Below are positions 5,550 to 35,717 of a DNA stretch of 35,717 nt, piece after piece. The notes under the pieces were generated by a model. It searched no databases and was not told where the DNA came from. It saw only the letters and a program-made list of their open reading frames with translations. Positions within the stretch are counted from its first letter, which is position 1; each line of letters opens with the position of its first letter. This DNA is from an uncultured Bacilli bacterium (GTDB lineage: Bacteria; Bacillota_I; Bacilli_A; RF39; UBA660): positions 1 through 35,717 of the forward strand of contig CANPWK010000001.1 in NCBI GenBank assembly GCA_947584105.1. The letters are read 5' to 3'. The translations under genes were made by a program, and so were the position numbers.

Positions 5550-6080
5550 TTATTCTTCAAGATACTTAGTTATAAAAGATGAGACAATTTCAACTATGTG
5601 CATCTGATCTATATTCAATTTTTCTTCTGTTGAAAAAATTAATATCATTCCAATAGTTTCTCCATCCTTAATTATAGGATTAGTAATATAAGTACAATTA
5701 AATAATTCCTTTTCAGTTACTTTTAATTCTTTTTTAAATCCTTCAAATATTTTTTCTCTTTTTTCTATTTTTGATGCTATTTCTTCGCTTATATTTTTAT
5801 CAAGTAAACTTTTTTTTAATGGACCACTACATGCTATTATTTTATGTAAATCTGTTATTATGATATTATATTTCATAAAACTATACATAGCATCAGTTAA
5901 TTCTTGAGCTAGATCATTAATTCTATTCATTATAGAAAACTTTTTTAATATAATTCTTTCATTTTCTACAAATATTTCTATATTTTCACCAACTCTTAAT
6001 CTTAAAGATTTTCTAATTTCTTTAGGTATTACAATTCTTCCTAGCTCATCTATTCTTCTTATTATTCCAGTTGATTTCAT
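5550..6080 (-). CDS. spoVT: Stage V sporulation protein T (AbrB-type N-domain plus GAF-like C-domain)
   Basis: MKSTGIIRRIDELGRIVIPKEIRKSLRL matches the SpoVT/AbrB swapped-hairpin domain. The 176-aa length fits SpoVT rather than the ~95-aa AbrB. It sits directly downstream of mfd, as in Bacillus. Confidence 0.88.
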   Translation of the reverse strand: MKSTGIIRRIDELGRIVIPKEIRKSLRLRVGENIEIFVENERIILKKFSIMNRINDLAQELTDAMYSFMKYNIIITDLHKIIACSGPLKKSLLDKNISEEIASKIEKREKIFEGFKKELKVTEKELFNCTYITNPIIKDGETIGMILIFSTEEKLNIDQMHIVEIVSSFITKYLEE

Positions 6081-10087: not shown

Positions 10088-10933
10088 TCACTTCTTTTCT
10101 TTAATATGATATAAATTATATACTTCACTTTTTTTCATTCCACGTTCCTTTGCAACTATCTTAATTGCATCCATAACACTAATGCCGTCTTTTAAATAAA
10201 AATCAATATGTTCTTTTATATTCAAATTATTATATTTTTGAATATTCTTATTTCCCTCAATTACTATTACAAGCTCTCCTTTATAAGAATTATTTTCTTT
10301 AATTAATTCATCTATTGTTCCTCTATATATTTCCTCAAATTTTTTAGTTATTTCCCGGGAAATAGATATTTGCCTATTTCCCAAAATATTTCCCAAATCT
10401 ATTAATACCTTTTTTATTCTATGTGGTGTTTCATAAATTATTAAAGTTGCCTCTATATTTTTTAACATTTCTAATTCTTTTTTTCTTGCACTATCCTGTG
10501 ATTTTAAAAATCCATAATAATAAAATGGCATTGGACATATCCCAGATGATGTAAGTGCTGGAACCAAAGCGGTTGCTCCAGGAAGACTTATAACATTATA
10601 TCCATTTTCTATTGCAAATTTTGCAAGTACATATCCAGGATCACTTATTATAGGTGTACCTCTATCACTTACAAGTCCTACATTAAAACCTTTTTGAAAA
10701 TATTCTAATAATTTTTGTTTGTTTCTTGATTCATTATATTCATGTGAAGATATTAATTTCTTTTTTATATCATAATATTTAAGTAATTCTCCTGTTACTC
10801 TTGTATCTTCACAAAATATAACATCTACCTTTTTCAATGTATTTATTGCTCTAATAGTTATATCTTCCATGTTACCAATAGGTGTAGGTATCAAATATAA
10901 TGAAGGAGAGTTATCATAACTTTTTTGTGACAT
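10088..10933 (-). CDS. rsmI: 16S rRNA (cytidine1402-2'-O)-methyltransferase RsmI (YabC)
   Basis: Tetrapyrrole-methylase fold motifs LYLIPTPIGN, CEDTR and SDRGTPIISDPG. 281 aa. Confidence 0.93.
   Translation of the reverse strand: MSQKSYDNSPSLYLIPTPIGNMEDITIRAINTLKKVDVIFCEDTRVTGELLKYYDIKKKLISSHEYNESRNKQKLLEYFQKGFNVGLVSDRGTPIISDPGYVLAKFAIENGYNVISLPGATALVPALTSSGICPMPFYYYGFLKSQDSARKKELEMLKNIEATLIIYETPHRIKKVLIDLGNILGNRQISISREITKKFEEIYRGTIDELIKENNSYKGELVIVIEGNKNIQKYNNLNIKEHIDFYLKDGISVMDAIKIVAKERGMKKSEVYNLYHIKEKK
10349..10364. promoter_or_regulatory. Perfect Noc-binding-site (NBS) palindrome TATTTCCCGGGAAATA inside rsmI
   Basis: It contains the full 14-bp B. subtilis NBS consensus ATTTCCCGGGAAAT as I recall it. 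It is flanked by TATTTCCC half-sites at 10249, 10375 and 10387. Confidence 0.7.
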
Positions 10934-12070: not shown

Positions 12071-12845
12071 CTAATATACACTCAATAACTCTATTATCTT
12101 CTATTTCTACCCAATATTTTCTTTTTAATATATCAACATTTACTACTTTACCAGTTCCCTCTTCTGTTTTCACTGTTTTTCCTAAAGAAGGCATATTTTT
12201 GCGATATTTTTTATAACAATCATCTTCATACTTTAAACAACATAACAATCTTCCACATATTCCATTAATTTTATTTGGATTTAAAGCAATATTTTGATTT
12301 TTGGCCATATTTATTGATACTGAATTAAAGTCATTTAAAAATCTTTTACAGCATAACTCTTGTCCACATTGACCACATCCACCAATTTCTTTTGCTTTAT
12401 CCCTTACTCCAATTTGTCTTAATTCAATTCTTGTTTTATATATATTAGCCAACTCTTTAGCTAAATTTCTAAAATCAACTCTTTCATCTGAAGTAAATTT
12501 AAATATTAATTGCTTTCTATCAAAAGTATAAATTGAATTAATTAAATTCATGTTTAAATTATATTTTTTTATTAGTTCCCTACATTTTATAAAAGCTTGT
12601 TGGGAAATAATATTATTTTTTTTATGAATTTTTTTATCTTTATCATTTGCAATTCTAATTATTTTGCAAAGATTATTATTTACTTTAGATTTATTATATT
12701 TTTTTATAGCAATTATTTTTGCTAAAAATGTACCAATATTTGTTTCTATAATTAAAGAATCATTCAATTTGACTTTATAATTATTAATTTGAGCATAATA
12801 TTTAGTATCGTATAAATCTAATTTAAGTTCAGCTACTTTTATCAT
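12054..12845 (-). CDS. ricT: PSP1-domain protein RicT (YaaT, stage 0 sporulation/competence regulator)
   Basis: Cys clusters GGCGQCGQELCCKRF and GICGRLLCCLKYE typical of YaaT/PSP1. It lies directly downstream of holB. Confidence 0.9.
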   Translation of the reverse strand: MIKVAELKLDLYDTKYYAQINNYKVKLNDSLIIETNIGTFLAKIIAIKKYNKSKVNNNLCKIIRIANDKDKKIHKKNNIISQQAFIKCRELIKKYNLNMNLINSIYTFDRKQLIFKFTSDERVDFRNLAKELANIYKTRIELRQIGVRDKAKEIGGCGQCGQELCCKRFLNDFNSVSINMAKNQNIALNPNKINGICGRLLCCLKYEDDCYKKYRKNMPSLGKTVKTEEGTGKVVNVDILKRKYWVEIEDNRVIECILDESIK

Positions 12846-13999: not shown

Positions 14000-14599
14000 T
14001 TAATTTATTATTTTTCTATTTTCCATTGCCATTTCTAAGGTCAAAGAATCAACATAATCAATTTCTGCTCCAATAGGTATACCTAATGCTATTCTTGAAA
14101 TAACTAAATCATTCTTTTTTAACAACTTAGATATATATAAAGCAGTAGTTTCTCCTTCAACAGTAGGTTTAATAGCTATTATAACCTCTTTAACATTATT
14201 TCCCATAATAATATTATTTATTCCCTCTATATCAAAACTAGAAGGATCGTATCCATTTGATGGGGAAATTAAATTAGGTAAAACATAATAATATCCATCA
14301 TATATTCGATTTTTTTCTATTTGAATAATATCTTTTGGATTTTCTACAATACATAAAATATTTTTATTTCTATTCTTATCATTACATATTTCACATATAT
14401 CATTTTCTGTGTAATTATTACAAATAGAACATCTTTTTATTTTTGTTTTTATATTTTCTAACGATTCTCTTAGTAAATTAATAACTTCATCATTTAAATT
14501 TAATGTAGCTAATGCCAACCTTTCTGCTGATTTTTCACCTATTGTTGGGAATTTTTTAAAACACTCAATTAAATTTTGGATTGTTTCAGGATATTTCAT
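14000..14599 (-). CDS. recR: Recombination protein RecR
   Basis: HhH N-terminus (FPTIGEKSAERLA), C4 zinc finger CSICNNYTENDICEICND, and a Toprim segment. Confidence 0.96.
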   Translation of the reverse strand: MKYPETIQNLIECFKKFPTIGEKSAERLALATLNLNDEVINLLRESLENIKTKIKRCSICNNYTENDICEICNDKNRNKNILCIVENPKDIIQIEKNRIYDGYYYVLPNLISPSNGYDPSSFDIEGINNIIMGNNVKEVIIAIKPTVEGETTALYISKLLKKNDLVISRIALGIPIGAEIDYVDSLTLEMAMENRKIIN

Positions 14600-14908: not shown

Positions 14909-16576
14909 CTATTCATATTGTACTATTTCACTAAATAAATTGTCAATATCATTATTCTTTATTTTACTTTCTTCTTTTTTTAAAAATTTCAATAATTCAG
15001 GATTTTCTTCAATAAATTGATATTTATTATTTCCATTTTTTAAGCTTTCATTAAAATCTTTTTTATAAATATTCCATTCGTTATTATCTATTGCAATTAA
15101 CTTAAAATCTTGATGATATTGATTCACAAATAATTTTTCAATTTTTTCTAATTCACTATTAAATATTAAGGACATTTGATTATTTTCATAAACAAAAACC
15201 AAATATTCATTGCCTTTTATTTTTAAACTACCATCAAGAATTAAAGATACATATTTGCTATAATCTGGATTCATCAACAACGAATTAATTGTTTCTAATT
15301 TTGTATTAAATTCATTTAAATCTTTTTTATTAAAATTTGCTAATGCATTATTAACTCTTATTTTTTTTAATTTATCTAATTTCTTTATATCTATATTATT
15401 TATATTATCAACTTTTTCAACATTTTTAGATTTATTTTCTTTAATAAGTAAATCATTATTTTTCTTTTTAATATTATCTAAATTATTATTTTGGGAAATA
15501 TTTTGATTAATATTAAATATTTTTATGATGGCCAATTCTGCTAACAAAAGTTTATTATTTTCATATTTCATATTATTAGAATATTCTAATAATATTTTAA
15601 TATATTCATATATGTTTTTTTCATTAACAAGATTAGCTAAATGTTTATATTCATTTAGCAAATTATCGTCCTTAAAATAATTACTAACATTAATATATAT
15701 TAATAAATCTTTTAAATATTCAATTATATTATTAAATAATATTAATAGATTTTTTCCATCTCTATCAAATTTATCTATTAAATTAAGTGTTATGTCAATT
15801 TTACTTTGAAAAAGAGATTGAATCAATTCATACATTTGTTCGCGTGAAATATTTCCACATATTTCATTAATATCATTTATTGTAATATTATTATTTGAAT
15901 ATGCTGCTACTTGATCTAATAAATTAACAGCATCTCTCATTCCTCCATTAGAATATTTTGAAATCAAATATAATGCCTCATCATTAATGCTTATATTTTC
16001 TTTACTACAAATTTTTTTTAACCCTATAACAATATCATCATTAGATATTTTTTTAAATTCAAATTTCTGACATCTAGATTTAATAGTTTCTGGTACTTTA
16101 TGAATTTCTGTTGTTGCTAAAATAAAAACAACATGTTTAGGTGGTTCCTCTAATGTTTTTAATAAGGCATTAAATGCTGATATAGTTAACATATGTACCT
16201 CATCAATTATATATACCTTGTATTTACTTTCGCTTGGTACTAAATTAACACTATTTTTTAATTCTCTTATTTCTTCTACTCCATTATTAGATGCAGCATC
16301 TATTTCTATAATATCAATATTTTTTTTGTTATTAATATTAATACAACTATTATAATTATCGCAAGGGCAATAATCAACTAACTTTTCACAATTAATAGTC
16401 TTAGCTAAAACTTTAGCAATTGTTGTTTTTCCTGTCCCGCGTGGTCCAGAAAATAAATAAGCATGTGAAATTTGATTGTTTAAAATTGCATTTTTTAAAG
16501 TTGTGACAATAACTTTTTGCCCTACTACTTCATCAAAATTGGATGGTCTATATTTTCTATATAATGCTTGATACAT
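14909..16576 (-). CDS. dnaX: DNA polymerase III tau/gamma subunit DnaX
   Basis: ALYRKYRP, Walker A GPRGTGKTT, DEVHML and SRCQKFEF. The C-terminal half is Asn/Lys-rich and low complexity. Confidence 0.96.
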   Translation of the reverse strand: MYQALYRKYRPSNFDEVVGQKVIVTTLKNAILNNQISHAYLFSGPRGTGKTTIAKVLAKTINCEKLVDYCPCDNYNSCININNKKNIDIIEIDAASNNGVEEIRELKNSVNLVPSESKYKVYIIDEVHMLTISAFNALLKTLEEPPKHVVFILATTEIHKVPETIKSRCQKFEFKKISNDDIVIGLKKICSKENISINDEALYLISKYSNGGMRDAVNLLDQVAAYSNNNITINDINEICGNISREQMYELIQSLFQSKIDITLNLIDKFDRDGKNLLILFNNIIEYLKDLLIYINVSNYFKDDNLLNEYKHLANLVNEKNIYEYIKILLEYSNNMKYENNKLLLAELAIIKIFNINQNISQNNNLDNIKKKNNDLLIKENKSKNVEKVDNINNIDIKKLDKLKKIRVNNALANFNKKDLNEFNTKLETINSLLMNPDYSKYVSLILDGSLKIKGNEYLVFVYENNQMSLIFNSELEKIEKLFVNQYHQDFKLIAIDNNEWNIYKKDFNESLKNGNNKYQFIEENPELLKFLKKEESKIKNNDIDNLFSEIVQYE

Positions 16577-16592
16577 TTTTTACCTCCTAATA

Positions 16593-16608
16593 TGTTTCAC
16601 GTGAAACA
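16593..16608. promoter_or_regulatory. parS: parS site 1 (perfect TGTTTCACGTGAAACA)
   Basis: Exact 16-bp palindrome matching the Firmicute parS consensus TGTTNCACGTGAAACA. It lies 4 nt from the GGAGG of dnaX. Confidence 0.85.
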
Positions 16609-16639
16609 TTATAAATAATATAATATAATTTAATAACAA

Positions 16640-16655
16640 TGTTTCACGTGGAACA
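16640..16655. promoter_or_regulatory. parS: parS site 2 (TGTTTCACGTGGAACA)
   Basis: The reverse complement TGTTCCACGTGAAACA equals the classical B. subtilis spo0J-internal parS as I recall it. Extended flanks are AACAATG...CATTGTT. Confidence 0.85.
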
Positions 16656-16671
16656 TTGTTTTATTTTTTTG

Positions 16672-17118
16672 TTATGATGTTTCACGTGAAACATTTGATT
16701 TTTTTCTTTTTACTTTAAAAAATTTTTTTAACAAATCAACCATTTCATTGTCATAATTACATTTTTCAACTTTTATTTTACTATTAATTAATAAATATGT
16801 ACATCCATAGTTATCATTATTTACTAAATAAATTATTTTTTTTATTCTTGATTGAATTAATGCTCCACAACACATCATGCATGGTTCCATAGTTGTATAT
16901 AAAATACAATTATCTAAATGCCAGGTATGTTTTTTTTTGCAAGCTTTATTAATTGCTATAATTTCTGCATGTAAAATAGCATTATTTTTTTTATTTTTTT
17001 GATTATAAGCTTTTGAAATAATTTTATTATTTTCTACAATTACAGCTCCAACTGGAATATCATTTTTTTTATAAGCTTTTTTAGCTTGCAAAATAGCTTC
17101 TTTCATATAAAAATTCAT
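16672..17118 (-). CDS. tadA: tRNA adenosine(34) deaminase TadA
   Basis: CDA-fold motifs HAEIIAI and EPCMMCCGA. 148 aa. The last 8 codons run through a parS palindrome. Confidence 0.93.
   Translation of the reverse strand: MNFYMKEAILQAKKAYKKNDIPVGAVIVENNKIISKAYNQKNKKNNAILHAEIIAINKACKKKHTWHLDNCILYTTMEPCMMCCGALIQSRIKKIIYLVNNDNYGCTYLLINSKIKVEKCNYDNEMVDLLKKFFKVKRKKSNVSRETS
16678..16693. promoter_or_regulatory. parS: parS site 3 (perfect), inside the last codons of tadA
   Basis: Exact TGTTTCACGTGAAACA. It encodes the ..NVSRETS* tail of the tadA ORF. Confidence 0.85.
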
Positions 17119-17129
17119 TGTACCTCCAA

Positions 17130-17145
17130 TGTTTCACGTGAAACA
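17130..17145. promoter_or_regulatory. parS: parS site 4 (perfect), between the SRP RNA 3' end and the tadA SD
   Basis: Exact TGTTTCACGTGAAACA. Its 18-bp form ends 1 nt from the GGAGG of tadA. Confidence 0.85.
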
Positions 17146-17148
17146 TAT

Positions 17149-17226
17149 AAAAAAAGCACACACATTTAGGGATTCTTAAGGCTGCTATTTTCCAATTCTG
17201 ACCTGATTCAAATATAAATGTTGTGC
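17149..17226 (-). ncRNA. ffs: Small (4.5S-type, ~78 nt) signal recognition particle RNA
   Basis: The minus-strand RNA is GCACAACAUUUAUAUUUGAAUCAGGUCAGAAUUGGAAAAUAGCAGCCUUAAGAAUCCCUAAAUGUGUGUGC followed by U7. The segment UCAGAAUU-GGAA-AAUAGCAGCC aligns with E. coli 4.5S domain IV (UCAGGUCC-GGAA-GGAAGCAGCC), with compensatory CC/GG to UU/AA changes around the GGAA tetraloop. The termini pair (GCACA.../...UGUGC). It lies next to tadA/dnaX, as scr does in Bacillus. Confidence 0.85.
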
Positions 17227-17232
17227 ATTAAT

Positions 17233-17261
17233 AATATACTATAATACTAAATATAATGCAA
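17233..17261 (-). promoter_or_regulatory. Putative sigma-A promoter of the SRP RNA gene
   Basis: On the minus strand, TTGCAT-17 nt-TATATT. The G at 17226 lies 7 nt downstream of the -10. Confidence 0.5.
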
Positions 17262-17266
17262 CTAAA

Positions 17267-17312
17267 TTTTATTTTTATTAATGTTTCACGTGAAACATTA
17301 ATAAAAATAAAA
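17267..17312. repeat. parS: 46-bp perfect palindrome centred on parS site 5 (core 17282..17297); probable gyrA terminator hairpin
   Basis: TTTTATTTTTATTAATGTTTCAC|GTGAAACATTAATAAAAATAAAA. Both 23-nt arms are exactly complementary, checked by hand. Confidence 0.85.
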
Positions 17313-17334
17313 ATCTCAACACATAAAATAACAA

Positions 17335-17350
17335 TGTTTCATGTGGAACA
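17335..17350. promoter_or_regulatory. parS: parS site 6 (variant TGTTTCATGTGGAACA)
   Basis: Differs from site 2 at one position in the 16-bp core and shares its extended flanks (TAACAATG...CATTGTTA). Confidence 0.7.
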
Positions 17351-17375
17351 TTGTTATTAAATTAAATTATATTAT

Positions 17376-19892
17376 TTATAATGTTTCACGTGAAACATTC
17401 TCTTCCTCATTATCTATTTCAGGTTCAATTAATGTAATAGTGCTGACTTTTTGATTATCTTTTAAATTAATTAATTTAACTCCCTGAGCAACTCTACCTG
17501 TTAAAGAAACTTGATTTAATGATAATCTAATAATAATTCCATTATCAGTAATAATCATCAAATCTTCATTACCAATAACACTCTTAAACGAAACTATATT
17601 TCCATTTTTATTTGTTATATTTAATGCTTTAACTCCTTTGCTTCCTCTATGAGTTATTCTATATTCTTCAACATTTGTTTTCTTACCATAACCATTTTCA
17701 GTTACTACTAATATTTTTTTATCTTTATTTGAAATTTCGCAACCTACTACTTTACCTTCGCCAACTTCTATTCCTTTAACACCTGCAGCAGTACGTCCCA
17801 TAACTCTAATTTCTGATTCATTAAACCTTATCATTCTTCCATTACTTGAAGCAATTATAATTTCATTTTTTCCATTAGTTTTTTGAACATCTACTAATTC
17901 ATCATTTTCTTTTAAAGTAATTGCTAATTTACCATTTGTTCTAATATTATTAAATTCACGAACGTTTGTTCTTTTAACTAATCCGTTTGCTGTAGCAAAG
18001 ACTATATAACCATCAGCATCTTCATTTTTTAAATTCAACATAGCTTTTACTTTTTCATCTTTTTCTATAGGAATTAGATTAACTATAGGTAAACCTTTTG
18101 ACTGTCGACTGAATGTAGGAATTTCATAACCCTTTAACCTATATACTTTTCCTTTATTAGTAAATATCATTAAATAATCGTGTGTTGTCATTGAAATAAT
18201 CTTTTCAACAAAATCTTCTTCGTTTGTAGACATTCCTTTAATTCCAACTCCACCTCTATTTTGTGTTTTATAAGTTTCACTTGTAATTCTTTTTATATAA
18301 CCATTATTAGTTAAAGTTATTACTATATCCTCTACTGGAATAAGAGATTCATCCTCTATATAATCTATAGCAGTCATATCTATAGTAGTTTTGCGTTCAT
18401 CTGAATATTTATGTTTTATTTCATTTAATTCTTCTTTTATAATATTTAATATTTTTTGTTCACTAGCTAAAATAGATTTTAATTCATCTATATATTTTAA
18501 TAAAGTATTTAACTCTTCTTCAATTTTATTTCTTTCTAATCCCGTTAATCTTCTTAATTTTAATTCTAGAATACTATTTGATTGAATTTCACTCAAATTG
18601 AAATTTTTCATAAGCGATTCTCTAGCATCTTGATCAGAATCAGATTCTTTTATAATTTTTATAACTCTATCGATATTGTCTAAGGCTATTTTATAACCTT
18701 GAAGAATATGTACTCTATTTTCTGATTTATTTAATTCAAATCTTGTTCTTCTAATAATTACTTCTTTTTGATAATCTATATATTTAGATATGATTGATTT
18801 TAAAGGTAATGTTTTTGGAACTTGACCATCTAACATTAAAAATGTAATTCCATAATTTATTTGAAAAGAAGTATGTTTATATAAATTATTTAAAATAACT
18901 TGAGCATTTGCATCTTTCTTTAAAGTAATAGTTATTTTTACACCATCTTTTAAATCAGTATGATAATCTGATATACCATCAATTACTTTATTATGAACAA
19001 GTTCTGCTACTTTATTTTTTAAATCCATTGTATTGACACCATATGGAACTTCAGTAATTATTATTTGACTATGACCATTATTTTCTTCAATAGAAGCCCT
19101 ACTTCTAATAGTAATTGTCCCTTTTCCTGTTTCATATGCTTGTTTAATTCCTGAATTACCTAAAATAACTCCTCCAGTTGGAAAATCTGGTCCTTTTATA
19201 TATTGCATTAAACCTAAAGTATCTATTTCTGGATTATCTATATAAGCAATACATCCATCAATTACCTCTCCTAAATTATGTGGTGGTATATTTGTAGCCA
19301 TTCCAACGGCAATTCCCATTGATCCATTAACTAAAACATTGGGAAATCTACTTGGTAAAACTATTGGTTCTTTACTAGTAGCATCAAAATTATCTTCCAT
19401 ATCAACAGTATCTTTATTAATATCCCTTAATAATTCTAAAGAAATTTTCGATAATCTAGCTTCTGTATAACGATAAGCAGCTGCTCCATCGCCTTCTATA
19501 TTACCAAAATTACCATGACCATCAATAAGCATATATCTTTGATTAAAATCTTGAGCTAATCGAACCATAGCATCATATATAGAAGCATCTCCATGTGGAT
19601 GGTAATGTCCCATTACATAACCTACAGTTGTTGCTGATTTTTTATGTGGCTTATCTGGAGTATTTCCCTCTTCAAACATAGACCATAAAATTCTTCTATG
19701 TACTGGTTTTAATCCATCTCTTAAATCTGGAATAGCACGTGAAGTAATAACACTCATTGAATAATCAAGAAATGATTTTTGAACTTCCTCTACTATGTTA
19801 TTTTCATATAGACTATCTCTTTCATGAAATTTTTCGCCATATTTATTTTCATCTAAATTATTTTTATCTTTTAATTCATTATTATCTTCCAT
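17376..19892 (-). CDS. gyrA: DNA gyrase subunit A
   Basis: AIPDLRDGLKPVHRRILW, the active-site Tyr region AAAYRYTEARL, and C-terminal beta-pinwheel repeats. 838 aa. Confidence 0.98.
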   Translation of the reverse strand: MEDNNELKDKNNLDENKYGEKFHERDSLYENNIVEEVQKSFLDYSMSVITSRAIPDLRDGLKPVHRRILWSMFEEGNTPDKPHKKSATTVGYVMGHYHPHGDASIYDAMVRLAQDFNQRYMLIDGHGNFGNIEGDGAAAYRYTEARLSKISLELLRDINKDTVDMEDNFDATSKEPIVLPSRFPNVLVNGSMGIAVGMATNIPPHNLGEVIDGCIAYIDNPEIDTLGLMQYIKGPDFPTGGVILGNSGIKQAYETGKGTITIRSRASIEENNGHSQIIITEVPYGVNTMDLKNKVAELVHNKVIDGISDYHTDLKDGVKITITLKKDANAQVILNNLYKHTSFQINYGITFLMLDGQVPKTLPLKSIISKYIDYQKEVIIRRTRFELNKSENRVHILQGYKIALDNIDRVIKIIKESDSDQDARESLMKNFNLSEIQSNSILELKLRRLTGLERNKIEEELNTLLKYIDELKSILASEQKILNIIKEELNEIKHKYSDERKTTIDMTAIDYIEDESLIPVEDIVITLTNNGYIKRITSETYKTQNRGGVGIKGMSTNEEDFVEKIISMTTHDYLMIFTNKGKVYRLKGYEIPTFSRQSKGLPIVNLIPIEKDEKVKAMLNLKNEDADGYIVFATANGLVKRTNVREFNNIRTNGKLAITLKENDELVDVQKTNGKNEIIIASSNGRMIRFNESEIRVMGRTAAGVKGIEVGEGKVVGCEISNKDKKILVVTENGYGKKTNVEEYRITHRGSKGVKALNITNKNGNIVSFKSVIGNEDLMIITDNGIIIRLSLNQVSLTGRVAQGVKLINLKDNQKVSTITLIEPEIDNEEENVSRETL
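17382..17397. promoter_or_regulatory. parS: parS site 7 (perfect), inside the last codons of gyrA
   Basis: Exact TGTTTCACGTGAAACA. It encodes the ..NVSRETL* tail of gyrA. Confidence 0.85.
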
Positions 19893-23032: not shown

Positions 23033-23069
23033 AATAAAAAAAGAAATTTAGCCTTTATAAATTTCTTTT
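23033..23069 (-). terminator. Intrinsic terminator after comK
   Basis: 12-bp stem AAAAGAAAUUUA / UAAAUUUCUUUU with a 7-nt loop, followed by UUUAUU on the minus strand. It overlaps the comK stop codon. Confidence 0.7.
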
Positions 23070-23520
23070 ATCCTTCTTTGACAATATGATCATATAATTT
23101 TGATTTTAACAAAGAAGCACGACAATATTGATTTTTTAATGAATATACTGAAATAGATGTAGATAACTTTTTACCATTTTTAAATAATATATAAGTTTGA
23201 TTGTTCTCACATATAATATCCTTAATATGATTTAAAGATATCCACATAGATTGTTGATTTCTCGTTGATGAAGTGGGAAAAAAGATTATTCTTCTAGTTT
23301 CTTCTATTATTATTGGAAATTTTGACTTTATTCCAGTTAAACTCTTTGTCCCTTCACATCTTCCAATATATGAACTGCCATAAAAATTACAATTATATTT
23401 AATAATTTTATTGCTGGAATTTGCAACTTCATATTCACAATCTTCTTCATAAATCATACTTTTACTATTATTTATAGGAATAATTGCTTGTGTTGAATCG
23501 TTTATTTCATATTCTTTCAT
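23068..23520 (-). CDS. comK: Competence transcription factor ComK family protein
   Basis: 150 aa. FYGSSYIGRCEGT, IIFFPTSSTRNQQSMWISLNHIK and FKNGKKLSTSISVYSLKNQYCRASLLKSK align with B. subtilis ComK (FFGSSYAGRKAGT / IFLFPTLSSTRPQCGWISHVHVK / FSNGKTMELPISYNSFENQVYRTAWLRTK), from memory. Confidence 0.85.
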   Translation of the reverse strand: MKEYEINDSTQAIIPINNSKSMIYEEDCEYEVANSSNKIIKYNCNFYGSSYIGRCEGTKSLTGIKSKFPIIIEETRRIIFFPTSSTRNQQSMWISLNHIKDIICENNQTYILFKNGKKLSTSISVYSLKNQYCRASLLKSKLYDHIVKEG

Positions 23521-30161: not shown

Positions 30162-30671
30162 TTATTTGTTAATAAATATATAATATGGAATAAAAGATGC
30201 CAATGTGTTTTTCAATTTTAACATTTTAGCATTAGGACAATACTTTTTTAATTCATCCTTAGGTCCTGAATATTTAATAAATGCTAATCTACTTTCTGTT
30301 TCTAACATGATGAGCGAAGAGCTTACATGTACTGCTATAACTTCATATCTATTTACAGTTGTTATTAAACGAGATTTAGGAGCAATTGCTAATTCAGAAA
30401 CAATCATTTTATCATTTTCAAAAATTATATTGTCATACAAATTATTAACTAGTTCAAGAATTTCTGGATGATGTTTTATAATAGGCGATAAATTTATATT
30501 AGATATCTCAAAACCATAAATAAATAGAAGCAATTCAACTAAAGTTATTATGCCAAAAAATATTGTTCCTCCAAGTGGTTCTGCTTCAATAATAGAGAAT
30601 AAAGTCATAACCCCAAAAAACAATAATATTGGATAACTAACAAAAATTATGATTAATCCCATAACTTCCAT
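30162..30671 (-). CDS. Hypothetical membrane protein (two N-terminal TM helices plus a ~110-aa soluble domain)
   Basis: 169-aa ORF on the opposite strand between mnmE and mnmG. No family recognised. The frame stays open upstream to an ATT at 30722 that is preceded by AAAGGTGAGGG. Confidence 0.6.
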   Translation of the reverse strand: MEVMGLIIIFVSYPILLFFGVMTLFSIIEAEPLGGTIFFGIITLVELLLFIYGFEISNINLSPIIKHHPEILELVNNLYDNIIFENDKMIVSELAIAPKSRLITTVNRYEVIAVHVSSSLIMLETESRLAFIKYSGPKDELKKYCPNAKMLKLKNTLASFIPYYIFINK

Positions 30672-32844: not shown

Positions 32845-33535
32845 ATTTATAGAAGAGATTAAAAAAATTGGGATAGAAATAACAGAAGATAAATTATTAC
32901 AATTGGAAAAATATTATGAATTATTAATAAAATACAATGAATTTATTAATTTAACGAGTATAACTAATAAAAAGGAAGTATATTTAAAACATTTTTATGA
33001 TTCTATAACAATTAGTAAAATAATTGATTTAAATAAAGAAAAAAGTTTATGTGATTTAGGTAGTGGAGCAGGATTTCCTGGTATTGTTATAAAAATATTT
33101 TTTCCTCATTTAGAAATTACATTAATTGATTCATTAAATAAAAGAGTAAAATTTTTAAATACTGTTATTGAAGAATTAAATTTAAAAGGAATAAAAGCAA
33201 TTCATATAAGAATAGAAGAATATGCCAAATGTAATAAAGAAAAATATGATATAGTTACTGCAAGGGCTGTTGCATCTTTAAATATTTTACTTGAACTGGG
33301 GATTAATTTAGTTAAAGTTGGGAAATATTTTATAGCAATGAAAGGAAATATTAATAATGAATTGCAATATAAAAATATAATAAAAAAATTAAATTGTTCT
33401 ATTGAAAATATTATAGAATTTCAATTACCAATTGAAAATAGTAAAAGAAGTTTAATAAAAATAAAAAAAGAAAAATCTACTCCAAAAATATTTCCCAGAA
33501 AATATAGTGAGGTAAAAAAGAATCCTTTAATATAA
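32831..33535 (+). CDS. rsmG: 16S rRNA (guanine527-N7)-methyltransferase RsmG (GidB)
   Basis: HFYDSI and the SAM motif DLGSGAGFPGIV. 234 aa. Conserved position after mnmG. Confidence 0.95.
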   Translation: MNQDKFIEEIKKIGIEITEDKLLQLEKYYELLIKYNEFINLTSITNKKEVYLKHFYDSITISKIIDLNKEKSLCDLGSGAGFPGIVIKIFFPHLEITLIDSLNKRVKFLNTVIEELNLKGIKAIHIRIEEYAKCNKEKYDIVTARAVASLNILLELGINLVKVGKYFIAMKGNINNELQYKNIIKKLNCSIENIIEFQLPIENSKRSLIKIKKEKSTPKIFPRKYSEVKKNPLI

Positions 33536-33556
33536 AAGTTTAAAGGATTTTTATTT
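33521..33556 (+). terminator. Intrinsic terminator after rsmG
   Basis: 10-bp stem AATCCTTTAA / TTAAAGGATT with a 9-nt loop, followed by TTTTATTT. It overlaps the rsmG stop codon. Confidence 0.7.
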
Positions 33557-33598
33557 CCCAAAATATTTTAATATGCTATTGCATTATTTCCCAAAATA
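33552..33598. promoter_or_regulatory. Two copies of TTATTTCCCAAAATAT (NBS-like half-site motif) in the noc promoter region
   Basis: Exact 16-mers at 33551..33566 and 33584..33599, 33 bp apart. The second fills the 17-nt spacer between TTGCAT (33579..33584) and TAATAT (33602..33607). A related ATATTTCCCAGAAAATAT lies at 33488..33505. Confidence 0.6.
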
Positions 33599-33634
33599 TA
33601 GTAATATAATAATAAGAATAGAAAGGAGTTAAAA

Positions 33635-35266
33635 ATGCAAGATAACAAGGGAATTAATAAAGTAATTGAATTAGAAAATAATGATATCCTACCTAATAGA
33701 TTTCAACCTAGAAAATATTTTGATGAAGAAGAAATATTGCAGTTATCAGAATCGATTAAAGAACATGGTGTACTAAATCCAATAATAGTTAGAAGACTCG
33801 GAGATAAATACGAATTAGTTGCTGGCGAAAGAAGATATAAAGCCAATATTTTAGCAGGAAATGATAAAATTCCAGCTATTGTTATGGATGTAAACGATAA
33901 AGAGAGTTCAGAAATAGCAGTAGTAGAAAATATTCAAAGAAAAGATTTAAATGCAATAGAAGAAGCTATTTCATATAAAAGAATATTAGACATAGGCTAT
34001 ATGACTCAAGAACAGTTAGCACGCAAAATGGGAAAAAGTCAATCATCAATTGCTAATAAAATAAGATTATTAAAATTGTCAGATGAAGTTCAAGATGCTT
34101 TAATGAAAAAACAAATATCAGAAAGACATGCAAGGTCATTACTAAGATTAGAGTCAATAAGCAAGCAAAATGAATTATTAAAAAGAATTATTGATGAAAG
34201 ATTAACTGTAAGAAAAACGGATGAGGAGATAGAAAAAATGAATAATAATATTAATGCCAATATTTTAAATAATGAGTATTCTCAAGATAATAATACAAAT
34301 AACTATATAAATAATAATATAAATGCAAATAATAATATAAATAATAATAATATGGAGAATAATCTAAATAACAATAATATAGATAATATATATTCTCAAA
34401 ATATTAATGGATTTAATCAAAATATGCAAATGAATAACCAAATAAATAGAAATATAACTAATTTTAATTCAGATCAAAATCAACAATCTACTATAACTAA
34501 TTTTAATGATGTAATTTTAACTAAAGATGAAAAAATACCAGAAGTACCAAGTACTAATCCAATAGAAGAAAATATTACACCAATAATGCCTGATAAATCA
34601 GTACCAGAAGTTGATTTATCAACTTTCCAAGAGGAAAATAATACAGATTTAAATACAATTAATAATGACATTTTTAAAAATAATTCTCAAATACCTGTTA
34701 GTGATTTTAATTTAGATAATCAAGTAGTAATGCAAGATAATATAAATTCTAATTTTATTTCTTTAGATGATAGTACCAAAAATCCAGTAAATGATAACGT
34801 AAATATAAACAATGTAAATAATATAAAATTAGATTTAGATTCTAACATAGCAAGTCATAATTTAAATGATAATATTTTTATAAAACCTCAATCTGACATA
34901 GTAGAAAATGATAAAAATAATAATAATAATATTAAAATTAATGAAAATGAATATAATAATAATCAATCCAATATGTTTAAATCGTCGCCAATAATTGATA
35001 CTACAAATAATAATCAAGAAAATCAAAATAATAATTATCAATCAGAAGTGAAACCAGAACCAATTATAGTAAATGATTATAATCAACAATATGATCCTAT
35101 AATGCCAGAAAAAGAAAATATAAATCCAACAATTGATTTTAAATCTATCATAAATTTAATTAGAAAGTGTTCTGCAGCTATAGAAAATAGTGGATATAAA
35201 ATTGAAACAGAAGAATATAATTTAGATAATTTATATCAAGTTATATTTAAAATTGAAAAACAATAA
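33635..35266 (+). CDS. noc: ParB-family nucleoid occlusion protein (Noc-type) with a ~300-aa Asn-rich low-complexity insertion
   Basis: ParB N-domain (LPNRFQPRKYF, VAGERRYKA) and an HTH with Noc-type residues (GKSQSSIANKIRLLKL ... ISERHARSLL, against Spo0J GKSRPHIANHLRLLTL ... SMGHGRTLL). The C-terminal ~45 aa (IINLIRKCSAAIENSGYKIETEEYNLDNLYQVIFKIEKQ) resemble the Noc C-terminus ([35 protein letters not shown]). Conserved position after rsmG. Confidence 0.85.
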   Translation: MQDNKGINKVIELENNDILPNRFQPRKYFDEEEILQLSESIKEHGVLNPIIVRRLGDKYELVAGERRYKANILAGNDKIPAIVMDVNDKESSEIAVVENIQRKDLNAIEEAISYKRILDIGYMTQEQLARKMGKSQSSIANKIRLLKLSDEVQDALMKKQISERHARSLLRLESISKQNELLKRIIDERLTVRKTDEEIEKMNNNINANILNNEYSQDNNTNNYINNNINANNNINNNNMENNLNNNNIDNIYSQNINGFNQNMQMNNQINRNITNFNSDQNQQSTITNFNDVILTKDEKIPEVPSTNPIEENITPIMPDKSVPEVDLSTFQEENNTDLNTINNDIFKNNSQIPVSDFNLDNQVVMQDNINSNFISLDDSTKNPVNDNVNINNVNNIKLDLDSNIASHNLNDNIFIKPQSDIVENDKNNNNNIKINENEYNNNQSNMFKSSPIIDTTNNNQENQNNNYQSEVKPEPIIVNDYNQQYDPIMPEKENINPTIDFKSIINLIRKCSAAIENSGYKIETEEYNLDNLYQVIFKIEKQ

Positions 35267-35427: not shown

Positions 35428-35717
35428 ATGAATAATAATCAAAATAGTTGTGGAAATTTAGTAAAAAAAGCTTGTAAAAAAATAGAACATGATTCTAAAT
35501 ATGCATCCAATTTGTCAATGACAATAGTAGGTCCAACAGGGCCTACCGGTCCAACGGGCCCAACAGGTCCAACGGGTCCAACAGGCCCAACAGGTCCAAT
35601 GGGACCAGCTACCGTTTCAGTAGGTGAAACTACAACAGCAGCTCCAGGGCAAGTAGCTAATGTAATTAATTCTGGGACTAATACTGAAGCAGTATTAGAA
35701 TTTACTATCCCTCAAGG
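35428..35717 (+). CDS. Collagen-like triple-helix-repeat protein (BclA-like exosporium/surface protein), 5' fragment truncated by the window end
   Basis: AAAGGAGG SD then ATG. Translation is [34 protein letters not shown]-(GPT)7[42 protein letters not shown]. The GPT repeat block (35531..35608) is locally GC-rich with mixed synonymous codons. Confidence 0.8.

Follow-up and report, generated by a model that had tools for sequence, protein, structure and literature searches.

The stretch of DNA analysed here (contig CANPWK010000001.1, positions 1 to 35,717, hereafter the window) covers 35.7 kb of the genome of an uncultured member of the Bacilli, has a G+C content of 23.7%, and contains within its rsmI gene a perfect 16-bp palindrome, TATTTCCCGGGAAATA, which matches the site bound by Noc, a protein of nucleoid occlusion (Noc-binding site, NBS). 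We consider it likely that this palindrome is a selectively maintained Noc site, at which a clamp of the ParB family, whose gene lies 23 kb away across the replication origin (oriC), would load as part of an origin-domain system that includes autorepression. The palindrome is read as a maintained site because it is identical to the experimentally defined NBS, because a protein with the cognate specificity residues is encoded in the same window and because the site has been kept against codon bias and across species of related gut bacteria.

A predicted Noc-binding palindrome within rsmI

The palindrome was found exactly where the initial annotation of the window had placed it, and the half-sites listed there at 10249, 10375 and 10387 are all three present as TATTTCCC (Table 1). 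The copies at 10375 and 10387 form a direct repeat of TATTTCCCAAA with a spacing of 12 bp, and each of them contains TATTTCCC. When TATTTCCCGGGAAATA is read on the coding (minus) strand, the codons ATT TCC CGG GAA ATA specify I-S-R-E-I of the conserved RsmI motif ISREITK. The only CCCGGG in the window falls within this palindrome, which contains the complete 14-bp NBS core, and the same core is found at the same codons in relatives.

All of the sites in rsmI are in frame with conserved RsmI residues (REITK and LG), and it could be argued that they merely reflect the peptides ISREI and LGN together with local codon choice, and are thus a by-product of coding or of chance. Codon usage speaks strongly against this. 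Among the 31 genes of the window CGG accounts for one of 337 Arg codons, its single use being in the palindrome; 3.2% of the Ser codons are TCC, and SREI would be expected to be written as TCC-CGG-GAA-ATA with a frequency of about 4e-5. In a synonymous-codon shuffle, which keeps every protein and the codon pool of each gene, the heptamer ATTTCCC/GGGAAAT, one arm of the palindrome, is expected 5.6 ± 1.9 times in all coding sequence, where 16 copies are present (0 of 2000 shuffles reached this number). For rsmI alone the figures are five copies against 0.56 (0 of 20000), and for the coding sequence without rsmI they are 11 against 5.0 (0 of 1000). Codon or dipeptide usage, which the initial annotation had itself raised as an explanation that would undo its proposal, does not account for the motif according to these shuffles and to the rarity of CGG and TCC. 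Non-coding DNA upstream of noc contains the identical motif as well, and a by-product of coding appears to us a negligible prospect.

A comparison of 80 rsmI loci from public genomes extends this picture. The 14-bp core occupies the same codon positions in the window as in 25 relatives, whose RsmI proteins are as little as 52% identical to that of the window, and synonymous sites flanking the core vary among the NBS-bearing loci. There are 38 low-GC loci, including the window, that encode ISREI, and 25 of these use TCC-CGG, while most of the others employ common codons (AGA or AGG for Arg and TCA or TCT for Ser, e.g. TCA-AGA). The pattern is bimodal, in that an rsmI locus either has the perfect site or else uses other codons. 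GGGAAAT is found at offset -25, in the LGN codons TTG GGA AAT, in 17 loci (window included), nearly all of which also possess the NBS. A counterpart of the half-site at 10387 within a few bp of its offset is confined to the closest relatives, and the offset of the half-site at 10249 is common to only five loci (window included), making it a weaker candidate.

Across the whole window the heptamer occurs 18 times, against 6.1 ± 2.7 expected from dinucleotide shuffles (none of 100 reached 18), and ATTTCCC ranks first in frequency among 133 heptamers of the same composition. The over-representation reported in the initial annotation thus stands, but its tally of 16 omitted the copies at 12602 and 15493 and its expectation of about 3 was too low. 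Longer forms of the motif are also in excess: the 8-bp half-site TATTTCCC occurs 14 times against 1.75 ± 1.29 expected, and the extended form TATTTCCCAAAATA is represented by four exact copies and one copy with a single mismatch against 0.30 expected. The excess is not evenly spread but gathered in two clusters, since nine of the 18 heptamers lie either in rsmI or in the 3' end of rsmG and the adjoining noc promoter, and the nine scattered copies represent only a modest excess over expectation. The over-represented heptamer corresponds to one arm of the cognate palindrome, as is the case for half-sites of the ParB family, and may be bound as such. The isolated half-site in dnaX may likewise be functional, and may share its region with the NBS that relatives carry between dnaX and ybaB. 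Two of the four CCC proline codons in the window are located inside ATTTCCC, one in GyrA (RFPN, 19341-19347) and one in RsmG (IFPR, 33490-33496).

Table 1. Candidate Noc sites in the window, the rsmI gene and the gene for the Noc-type protein.
Feature	Position	Strand	Context
rsmI, 16S rRNA C1402 2'-O-methyltransferase	10088-10933	-	Host gene of the cluster; TIGR00096, 260.5 bits (cutoff 167.9)
Half-site TATTTCCC	10249-10256	+	EGNK codons; distance to the palindrome 100 bp
Near half-site TATTTCCT (7 of 8 bases)	10327-10334	+	Inverted repeat I2; weak candidate
Perfect 16-bp NBS palindrome TATTTCCCGGGAAATA	10349-10364		Inside rsmI
Half-site TATTTCCCAAA	10375-10385	+	TTG GGA AAT on the coding strand, LGN of ILGN; distance to the left palindrome arm 26 bp
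Half-site TATTTCCCAAA, second tandem copy	10387-10397	+	DLGN codons; 12 bp from the first copy
Extended half-site TATTTCCCATAATA, one mismatch	14197-14210	+	In recR
Extended half-site TATTTCCCAAAATA, isolated	15487-15500	-	Variable C-terminal half of dnaX
Half-site GGGAAATA	33320-33327	-	In rsmG, VGKYF codons
Degenerate NBS TATTTCCCAGAAAATA, two mismatches	33489-33504		Last codons of rsmG (IFPRKY); uses a rare CCC codon
Distal half-site TATTTCCCAAAATA	33552-33565	+	33 bp upstream of the proximal half-site
Proximal half-site TATTTCCCAAAATATAG	33585-33601	+	Takes up the whole 17-bp spacer that separates TTGCAT (33579-33584) from TAATAT (33602-33607), putative noc promoter
Noc-type ParB-family protein, 543 aa	33635-35266	+	ParB N-terminal domain, helix-turn-helix, insert, Noc-type C-terminal domain

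A Noc-type protein without the membrane-targeting helix

The gene at 33635-35266 encodes a protein with ParB_N (PF02195, 104 bits) and HTH_ParB domains, in which GERRYKA (corresponding to the GERRxRA motif for cytidine triphosphate (CTP) binding and spreading) and ENIQR align with the equivalent boxes of Noc and ParB. Its best family is TIGR04285 (nucleoid_noc), and the last 51 residues match positions 205-255 of this profile (E = 3.7e-4), which represent the Noc-type C-terminal dimerisation domain. Comparison with solved structures places it nearer to Noc (7ng0, 192 bits; 7ol9, 182 bits) than to Spo0J/ParB (163-168 bits). The helix-turn-helix region, GKSQSSIANKIRLLKL followed by ISERHAR, provides Q173, K179, K184 and R201 in Caulobacter ParB numbering, and these four residues suffice to switch ParB from parS to NBS (Jalal et al. 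2020, PMC7383237). Direct alignment with the ParB of its own lineage, to which it is 51% identical, gives Q/R, K/I, K/R and R/G at the four specificity positions. In a neighbour-joining tree of the core region, built from a small sampling of taxa and carrying no bootstrap values, the protein groups with the Noc of Lysinibacillus (QKKR) and apart from the ParB of the lineage. The product of 33635-35266 is, on these grounds, the likely reader of the NBS in rsmI. The initial annotation had proposed a protein of the Noc type that recognises an NBS-like sequence and nucleates at a cluster within rsmI. This proposal is well supported by the window noc gene with its Q/K/K/R residues, by the codon tests and by the conservation of the site across species, to the extent that such comparisons can decide the matter.

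Nevertheless the predicted protein is not a textbook Noc, as it lacks the membrane-targeting helix and contains an insert. The insert consists of about 280 residues of low complexity, rich in N and Q, between the DNA-binding and C-terminal domains (about residues 205-485, window 34250-35100). Homologues range in length from about 360 to about 730 aa, almost all of them having about 400-700 aa. In the window protein PNRFQPR is preceded by just 19 residues (MQDNKGINKVIELENNDIL), compared with 46 before the corresponding motif in Bacillus subtilis Noc, and in the alignment with the Noc chain of 7ol9 its residue 8 is paired with residue 28. The N-terminal amphipathic helix (aa 1-15) is absent from the window protein, and upstream of the ATG there are at most 10 in-frame codons, which contain the ribosome-binding site. 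The short N-terminus is common to all 80 of the 80 homologues retrieved. In the study of Adams (2015, PMC4331003) the amphipathic helix was essential, the NocNdelta10 variant being inactive, and was conserved in every Noc homologue examined.

The exact protein sequence matched just one Logan contig, of 4.5 kb. The gene order rsmG-noc is retained, but noc is not followed by soj-spo0J in the window or in clade A, which comprises 58 related noc loci with 56 unique upstream sequences; in a sister clade (clade B) the order is rsmG-noc-soj-spo0J. Directly downstream of the window noc gene, an open reading frame (ORF) with collagen-like GPT triplet repeats (35428-35717, plus strand) runs off the end of the window, and we presume that it resembles the BclA-type exosporium proteins.

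Predicted Noc and ParB sites around the origin

The window spans the replication origin, with a change in the sign of the GC skew near 26.5 kb and dnaA present. Genes of the left arm, all on the minus strand, are mntP, spoIIR, ksgA, tatD, metG, spoVT, mfd, pth, rsmI, cdd, a gene for a TrmN-like methyltransferase, ricT, holB, recR, ybaB, dnaX, tadA, the signal recognition particle (SRP) RNA gene, gyrA, gyrB, recF, a comK-like gene, dnaN and dnaA. On the right arm are yidC, jag/khpB, mnmE, mnmG, rsmG, the ParB-family gene and the collagen-like ORF.

This location raises the possibility that the motif is an origin-related element, such as a variant DnaA box or some other origin signal, and TTTCCCAAA does share six of nine bases with TTATCCACA. 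However, canonical TTATCCACA boxes are present separately near dnaA (26204, 26334 and 26399), the conserved motif of the noc promoter is never a DnaA box, and the two motif clusters are situated 7 and 16 kb from oriC. An origin signal of this sort is scarcely credible, and on the sequence evidence we regard both the DnaA box and the coding by-product as effectively excluded.

Sites for ParB are also present in the window. Seven canonical parS sites (TGTTTCACGTGAAACA) are found at 16593-17397, about 9 kb from dnaA, on either side of tadA (16672-17118) and of the gene for the SRP RNA; those at 16593, 16678, 17130, 17282 and 17382 are perfect and those at 16640 and 17335 near-perfect, whereas about 0.6 matches would be expected at the search threshold of up to three mismatches. 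No parA or parB gene was found within the 35.7-kb window. In three clade A genomes that have both loci on one contig (L163/L043, L164/L023 and L174/L031) a canonical soj-spo0J pair is located 35-45 kb from noc, and the clade A ParB possesses the R..G residues (R/I/R/G at the four positions) and an N-terminus of the form LG(R/K)GL. The idea that Noc has replaced ParB, which the missing soj-spo0J after noc had suggested, is ruled out by the seven parS sites in the window and by this canonical ParB. Nor does the rsmI palindrome belong with ParB/parS: at the two positions that distinguish it from parS (TGTTNCACGTGAAACA) it reads A and C, and the protein of the window contains Q and R instead of R173 and G201. 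Both pairs, Noc/NBS and ParB/parS, therefore appear to coexist in the lineage, judging by residues and sites.

The distribution of NBS among relatives was examined by an exact 16-mer scan of a species-representative genome collection, which returned at least 120 stretches, a sample that derives from other species and in which degenerate sites are not detected. Among the matches listed, all 53 of the 53 low-GC stretches with a perfect NBS carry homologues of window genes, and hence represent the same oriC block, whereas of the 66 stretches with a higher GC content (Listeria and Planococcus among others) 10 contain such homologues, a figure that fits scattered NBS of the classical type. The spread seen in the low-GC stretches is far narrower than that classical pattern. 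The low-GC sites in this set are mostly positioned between matches to gyrA and tadA, tadA and dnaX, or dnaX and ybaB, or else in trmN or rsmI, with 12 perfect NBS located between tblastn matches to dnaX and ybaB. The surroundings of parAB in related genomes, 325 kb in all, contained no NBS with up to one mismatch, and 1 Mb of noc loci contained no perfect NBS elsewhere than in rsmG.

A sizeable minority of the genomes among the matches listed (about 15) show NBS and parS alternating next to tadA. For example, tandem units that each contain one perfect NBS and one parS are repeated 5.6 times with a length of 126 bp in L257 (2258-2963) and 8.1 times with a length of 82 bp in L344 (917-1582), and NBS/parS tandem repeats are also found in the intergenic regions of gyrA-tadA-dnaX in L253, L279, L298, L332 and L242. 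The window has a parS-only array at this position and an NBS in rsmI instead. The expectation in the initial annotation that Noc sites would merely be depleted near the terminus was probably too conservative.

Noc is the textbook nucleoid occlusion factor of Gram-positive bacteria, and both scattered NBS and a membrane helix at the N-terminus are believed to be necessary for its mechanism. The window protein might act in this classical manner, its nucleoprotein complexes binding the membrane and blocking assembly of the Z-ring as in B. subtilis and Staphylococcus aureus, since the NBS is identical, the Q/K/K/R residues, the Noc-type C-terminal domain and the position after rsmG are retained, the protein groups with Noc of the Bacillales, and the organism would be a walled spore-former with spoIIR and spoVT. 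The absence of the essential helix from the window protein and from every homologue retrieved does not agree with such a role, and neither does the restriction of perfect NBS to the oriC block in the low-GC matches listed, nor their absence from the surroundings of parAB and, apart from rsmG, from the noc loci. We judge classical nucleoid occlusion to be unlikely.

Several other features of the window deserve mention. An Rfam search returned a single hit, the bacterial small SRP RNA (RF00169, 56.6 bits, 17140-17236, minus strand) between tadA and gyrA with parS on both sides, and no RNA family overlapping the NBS sites. A ComK-family gene (PF06338, 137 bits; 23068-23520, minus strand) is located between dnaN and recF, a position kept in several relatives. 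A 169-aa ORF without a Pfam match (30162-30671, minus strand) lies between mnmE and mnmG, on the strand opposite to that of all its right-arm neighbours. The homologues of spoIIR (670-1191) and spoVT (5550-6080) point to a spore-forming member of the Bacillota, while related records of metagenome-assembled genomes are often labelled Tenericutes, Mycoplasmatota or even Muribaculaceae.

The putative noc promoter and a possible origin-domain role for Noc

The second cluster of heptamers precedes noc, where TATTTCCCAAAATA occurs twice, at 33552 and 33585. In clade A the plus-strand ATTTCCC is found no more than 160 bp upstream of noc at all 58 of the 58 loci, and in 52 of the 56 unique upstream regions it fits the architecture TTGnnn-T-ATTTCCC-AAAnTATAg-TATnAT, with the heptamer in the 17-bp spacer. 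The heptamer is the most conserved and informative block upstream of noc, and its flanks carry no information. In 31 of the 56 upstream sequences a second copy in direct orientation lies a further 21-23 bp upstream, and in 13 others the nearest second copy is inverted and 7-39 bp away. Clade A loci contain 391 heptamers in 1.02 Mb, 162 of which fall within 500 bp upstream of noc; a general enrichment of the heptamer throughout the genome was rejected as an interpretation, as the excess in relatives is almost wholly within these 500 bp, the background amounting to about 1-2 per 10 kb. Relatives possess one-mismatch NBS, TATTTCCCAGGAAATA among them, about as far upstream of noc as the degenerate site at 33489, and these may occupy its codon position in rsmG. 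In some relatives the half-site GGGAAATA also precedes a perfect NBS at the rsmG codons for NISREI, where the window reads NINNEL and the NBS has been lost. Taken together with the rsmI comparison, this conservation indicates, in so far as aligned sequences can do so, that both the NBS in rsmI and the site in the noc promoter are under purifying selection at the nucleotide level.

An operator within a promoter spacer is a classic geometry for repression. The position of the half-site in the spacer suggests on this account that noc is autoregulated, Noc most likely acting as a repressor of its own transcription through this half-site, although clade B, which lacks the promoter motif, implies that such autoregulation is not universal.

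Several points weigh against the interpretation of the rsmI palindrome as a maintained Noc site within an autorepressing origin system. The score of the protein against TIGR04285 is 276 bits and misses the curated cutoff of 315; with the insert removed it rises to 292.7 bits, the match spanning profile positions 1-255, and is still below 315. A promoter and terminator scanner run on 33450-33700 called neither a noc promoter nor an rsmG terminator, and the -35 element in the window is weak (three of six positions match), so that support for the promoter comes from its conservation across species. Clade B, which has the same Q/K/x/R residues, shows no promoter motif and no excess of heptamers near noc (26 against 27 expected). 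The conservation counts in this work take no account of kinship among the genomes, and the 16-mer scan has the limits of sampling and exact matching given above. No report of half-site binding by Noc was found in the literature searched.

The last of these points bears on an alternative in which there are two readers, Noc binding the full palindrome only and the ATTTCCCAAA(ATA) half-sites in the noc promoter, rsmI, dnaX and recR serving as the operator of another transcription factor. The form TATTTCCCAAAATA includes an A-tract outside the NBS, the promoter sites are direct repeats 21-23 bp apart, which is atypical for a dimer that binds palindromes, and Noc autoregulation was not found in the literature searched. 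Against this, the motif covers all 8 bp of the NBS arm, with the two specificity positions among them, it sits at the promoter of noc itself, it co-occurs with NBS at a fixed offset in rsmI and also flanks the perfect NBS in the rsmG of relatives, and there is a precedent within the ParB family for binding to half-sites (PMC5961200). A second transcription factor seems to us quite improbable.

With Noc as the reader of both palindrome and half-sites, the following sequence of events can be envisaged. A Noc dimer would nucleate on the rsmI palindrome, where the half-sites in the same orientation (10375, 10387 and perhaps 10249) may raise local occupancy as arms of lower affinity, in the manner of the half-parS sites of Pseudomonas aeruginosa. 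The CTP-dependent clamp would then slide from the palindrome onto flanking DNA and so spread locally, while the half-site in the spacer of the noc promoter would exert negative feedback on noc. A more speculative step is that the origin domain would be marked or organised alongside ParB, rather than the nucleoid being tethered to the membrane throughout the chromosome; a role in the origin domain is favoured because the protein has no membrane helix and because the NBS of relatives are limited to the block near oriC, often alternating with parS. It is possible, though we put this forward only tentatively, that the anchor-less Noc is a second origin-domain clamp at a few NBS close to oriC, co-loaded with ParB in a shared tandem centromere, which organises or times events at the origin (segregation, SMC loading, control of initiation or anchoring during sporulation) and does not carry out nucleoid occlusion, its long disordered linker reaching separated half-sites, including those that autoregulate noc.

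The recognition described here would be the known pairing of Noc with NBS and not a new kind of system, as far as site and residues allow a judgement. With Noc of B. subtilis and Geobacillus (Wu 2009; PMC4331003; PMC7383237; PMC8429893) the window protein and its site share the 16-bp TATTTCCCGGGAAATA, a ParB-type fold with the GERR motif for CTP binding, the residues Q173/K179/K184/R201, a Noc-type C-terminal domain and the gene position directly after rsmG. In contrast to these proteins, the window Noc has no helix, contains the insert of about 280 aa between the DNA-binding and C-terminal domains, falls below the TIGR04285 cutoff and is not followed by soj-spo0J, and its sites are few, conserved in position, confined to the oriC block in relatives and include half-sites in its own promoter. 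The Noc of S. aureus, which has the same NBS core, offers a precedent for an origin-linked function other than division, as a role at the origin in the control of replication initiation has been proposed for it and minor binding peaks flank dnaA (Pang 2017, PMC5540599); in the system described here, by contrast, the sites cluster at most tens of kb from oriC, and the protein shows no visible membrane motif. P. aeruginosa ParB binds half-parS heptamers at hundreds of sites genome-wide as detected by chromatin immunoprecipitation sequencing (Kawalek 2018, PMC5961200; PMC10419367). In that case, too, the heptanucleotide is one arm of the palindrome and there are many sites beyond the full palindromes, whereas the window encodes a Noc paralogue with a small number of clustered sites, to which binding is predicted.

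The parS arrays of ParB are likewise palindromes that are clustered near the origin, conserved in position and used to load a CTP clamp, but the rsmI palindrome differs at two specificity positions, the cognate protein has Q/R and not R/G, and relatives encode a separate canonical ParB. KorB of plasmid RK2 is a CTP-binding repressor of the ParB family with sites at or near promoters, including that of its own operon, which acts at full palindromic OB operators together with its partner KorA. KorB (8qa8) is a weak structural-sequence match to the window Noc, which would differ from it in using a single half-site in a promoter spacer for its presumed repression. Searches of the literature for Noc autoregulation, for Noc in Mollicutes-like taxa and for tandem NBS/parS arrays returned nothing relevant; the helix-less architecture with an insert, the small number of conserved sites confined to the origin, the half-site in the promoter and the composite NBS/parS arrays of relatives were not found in the literature searched.

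The rsmI gene provides a clear example of a predicted protein-binding site that is kept by means of rare codons within the conserved motif of an enzyme, and such sites would easily be destroyed by codon optimisation. By keeping the NBS code and the specificity residues while dropping the helix, this lineage would be a natural system in which the recognition of DNA is uncoupled from tethering to the membrane. It may offer a testable case for the action of a Noc clamp without a membrane anchor and for two paralogous CTP clamps that share one loading region.

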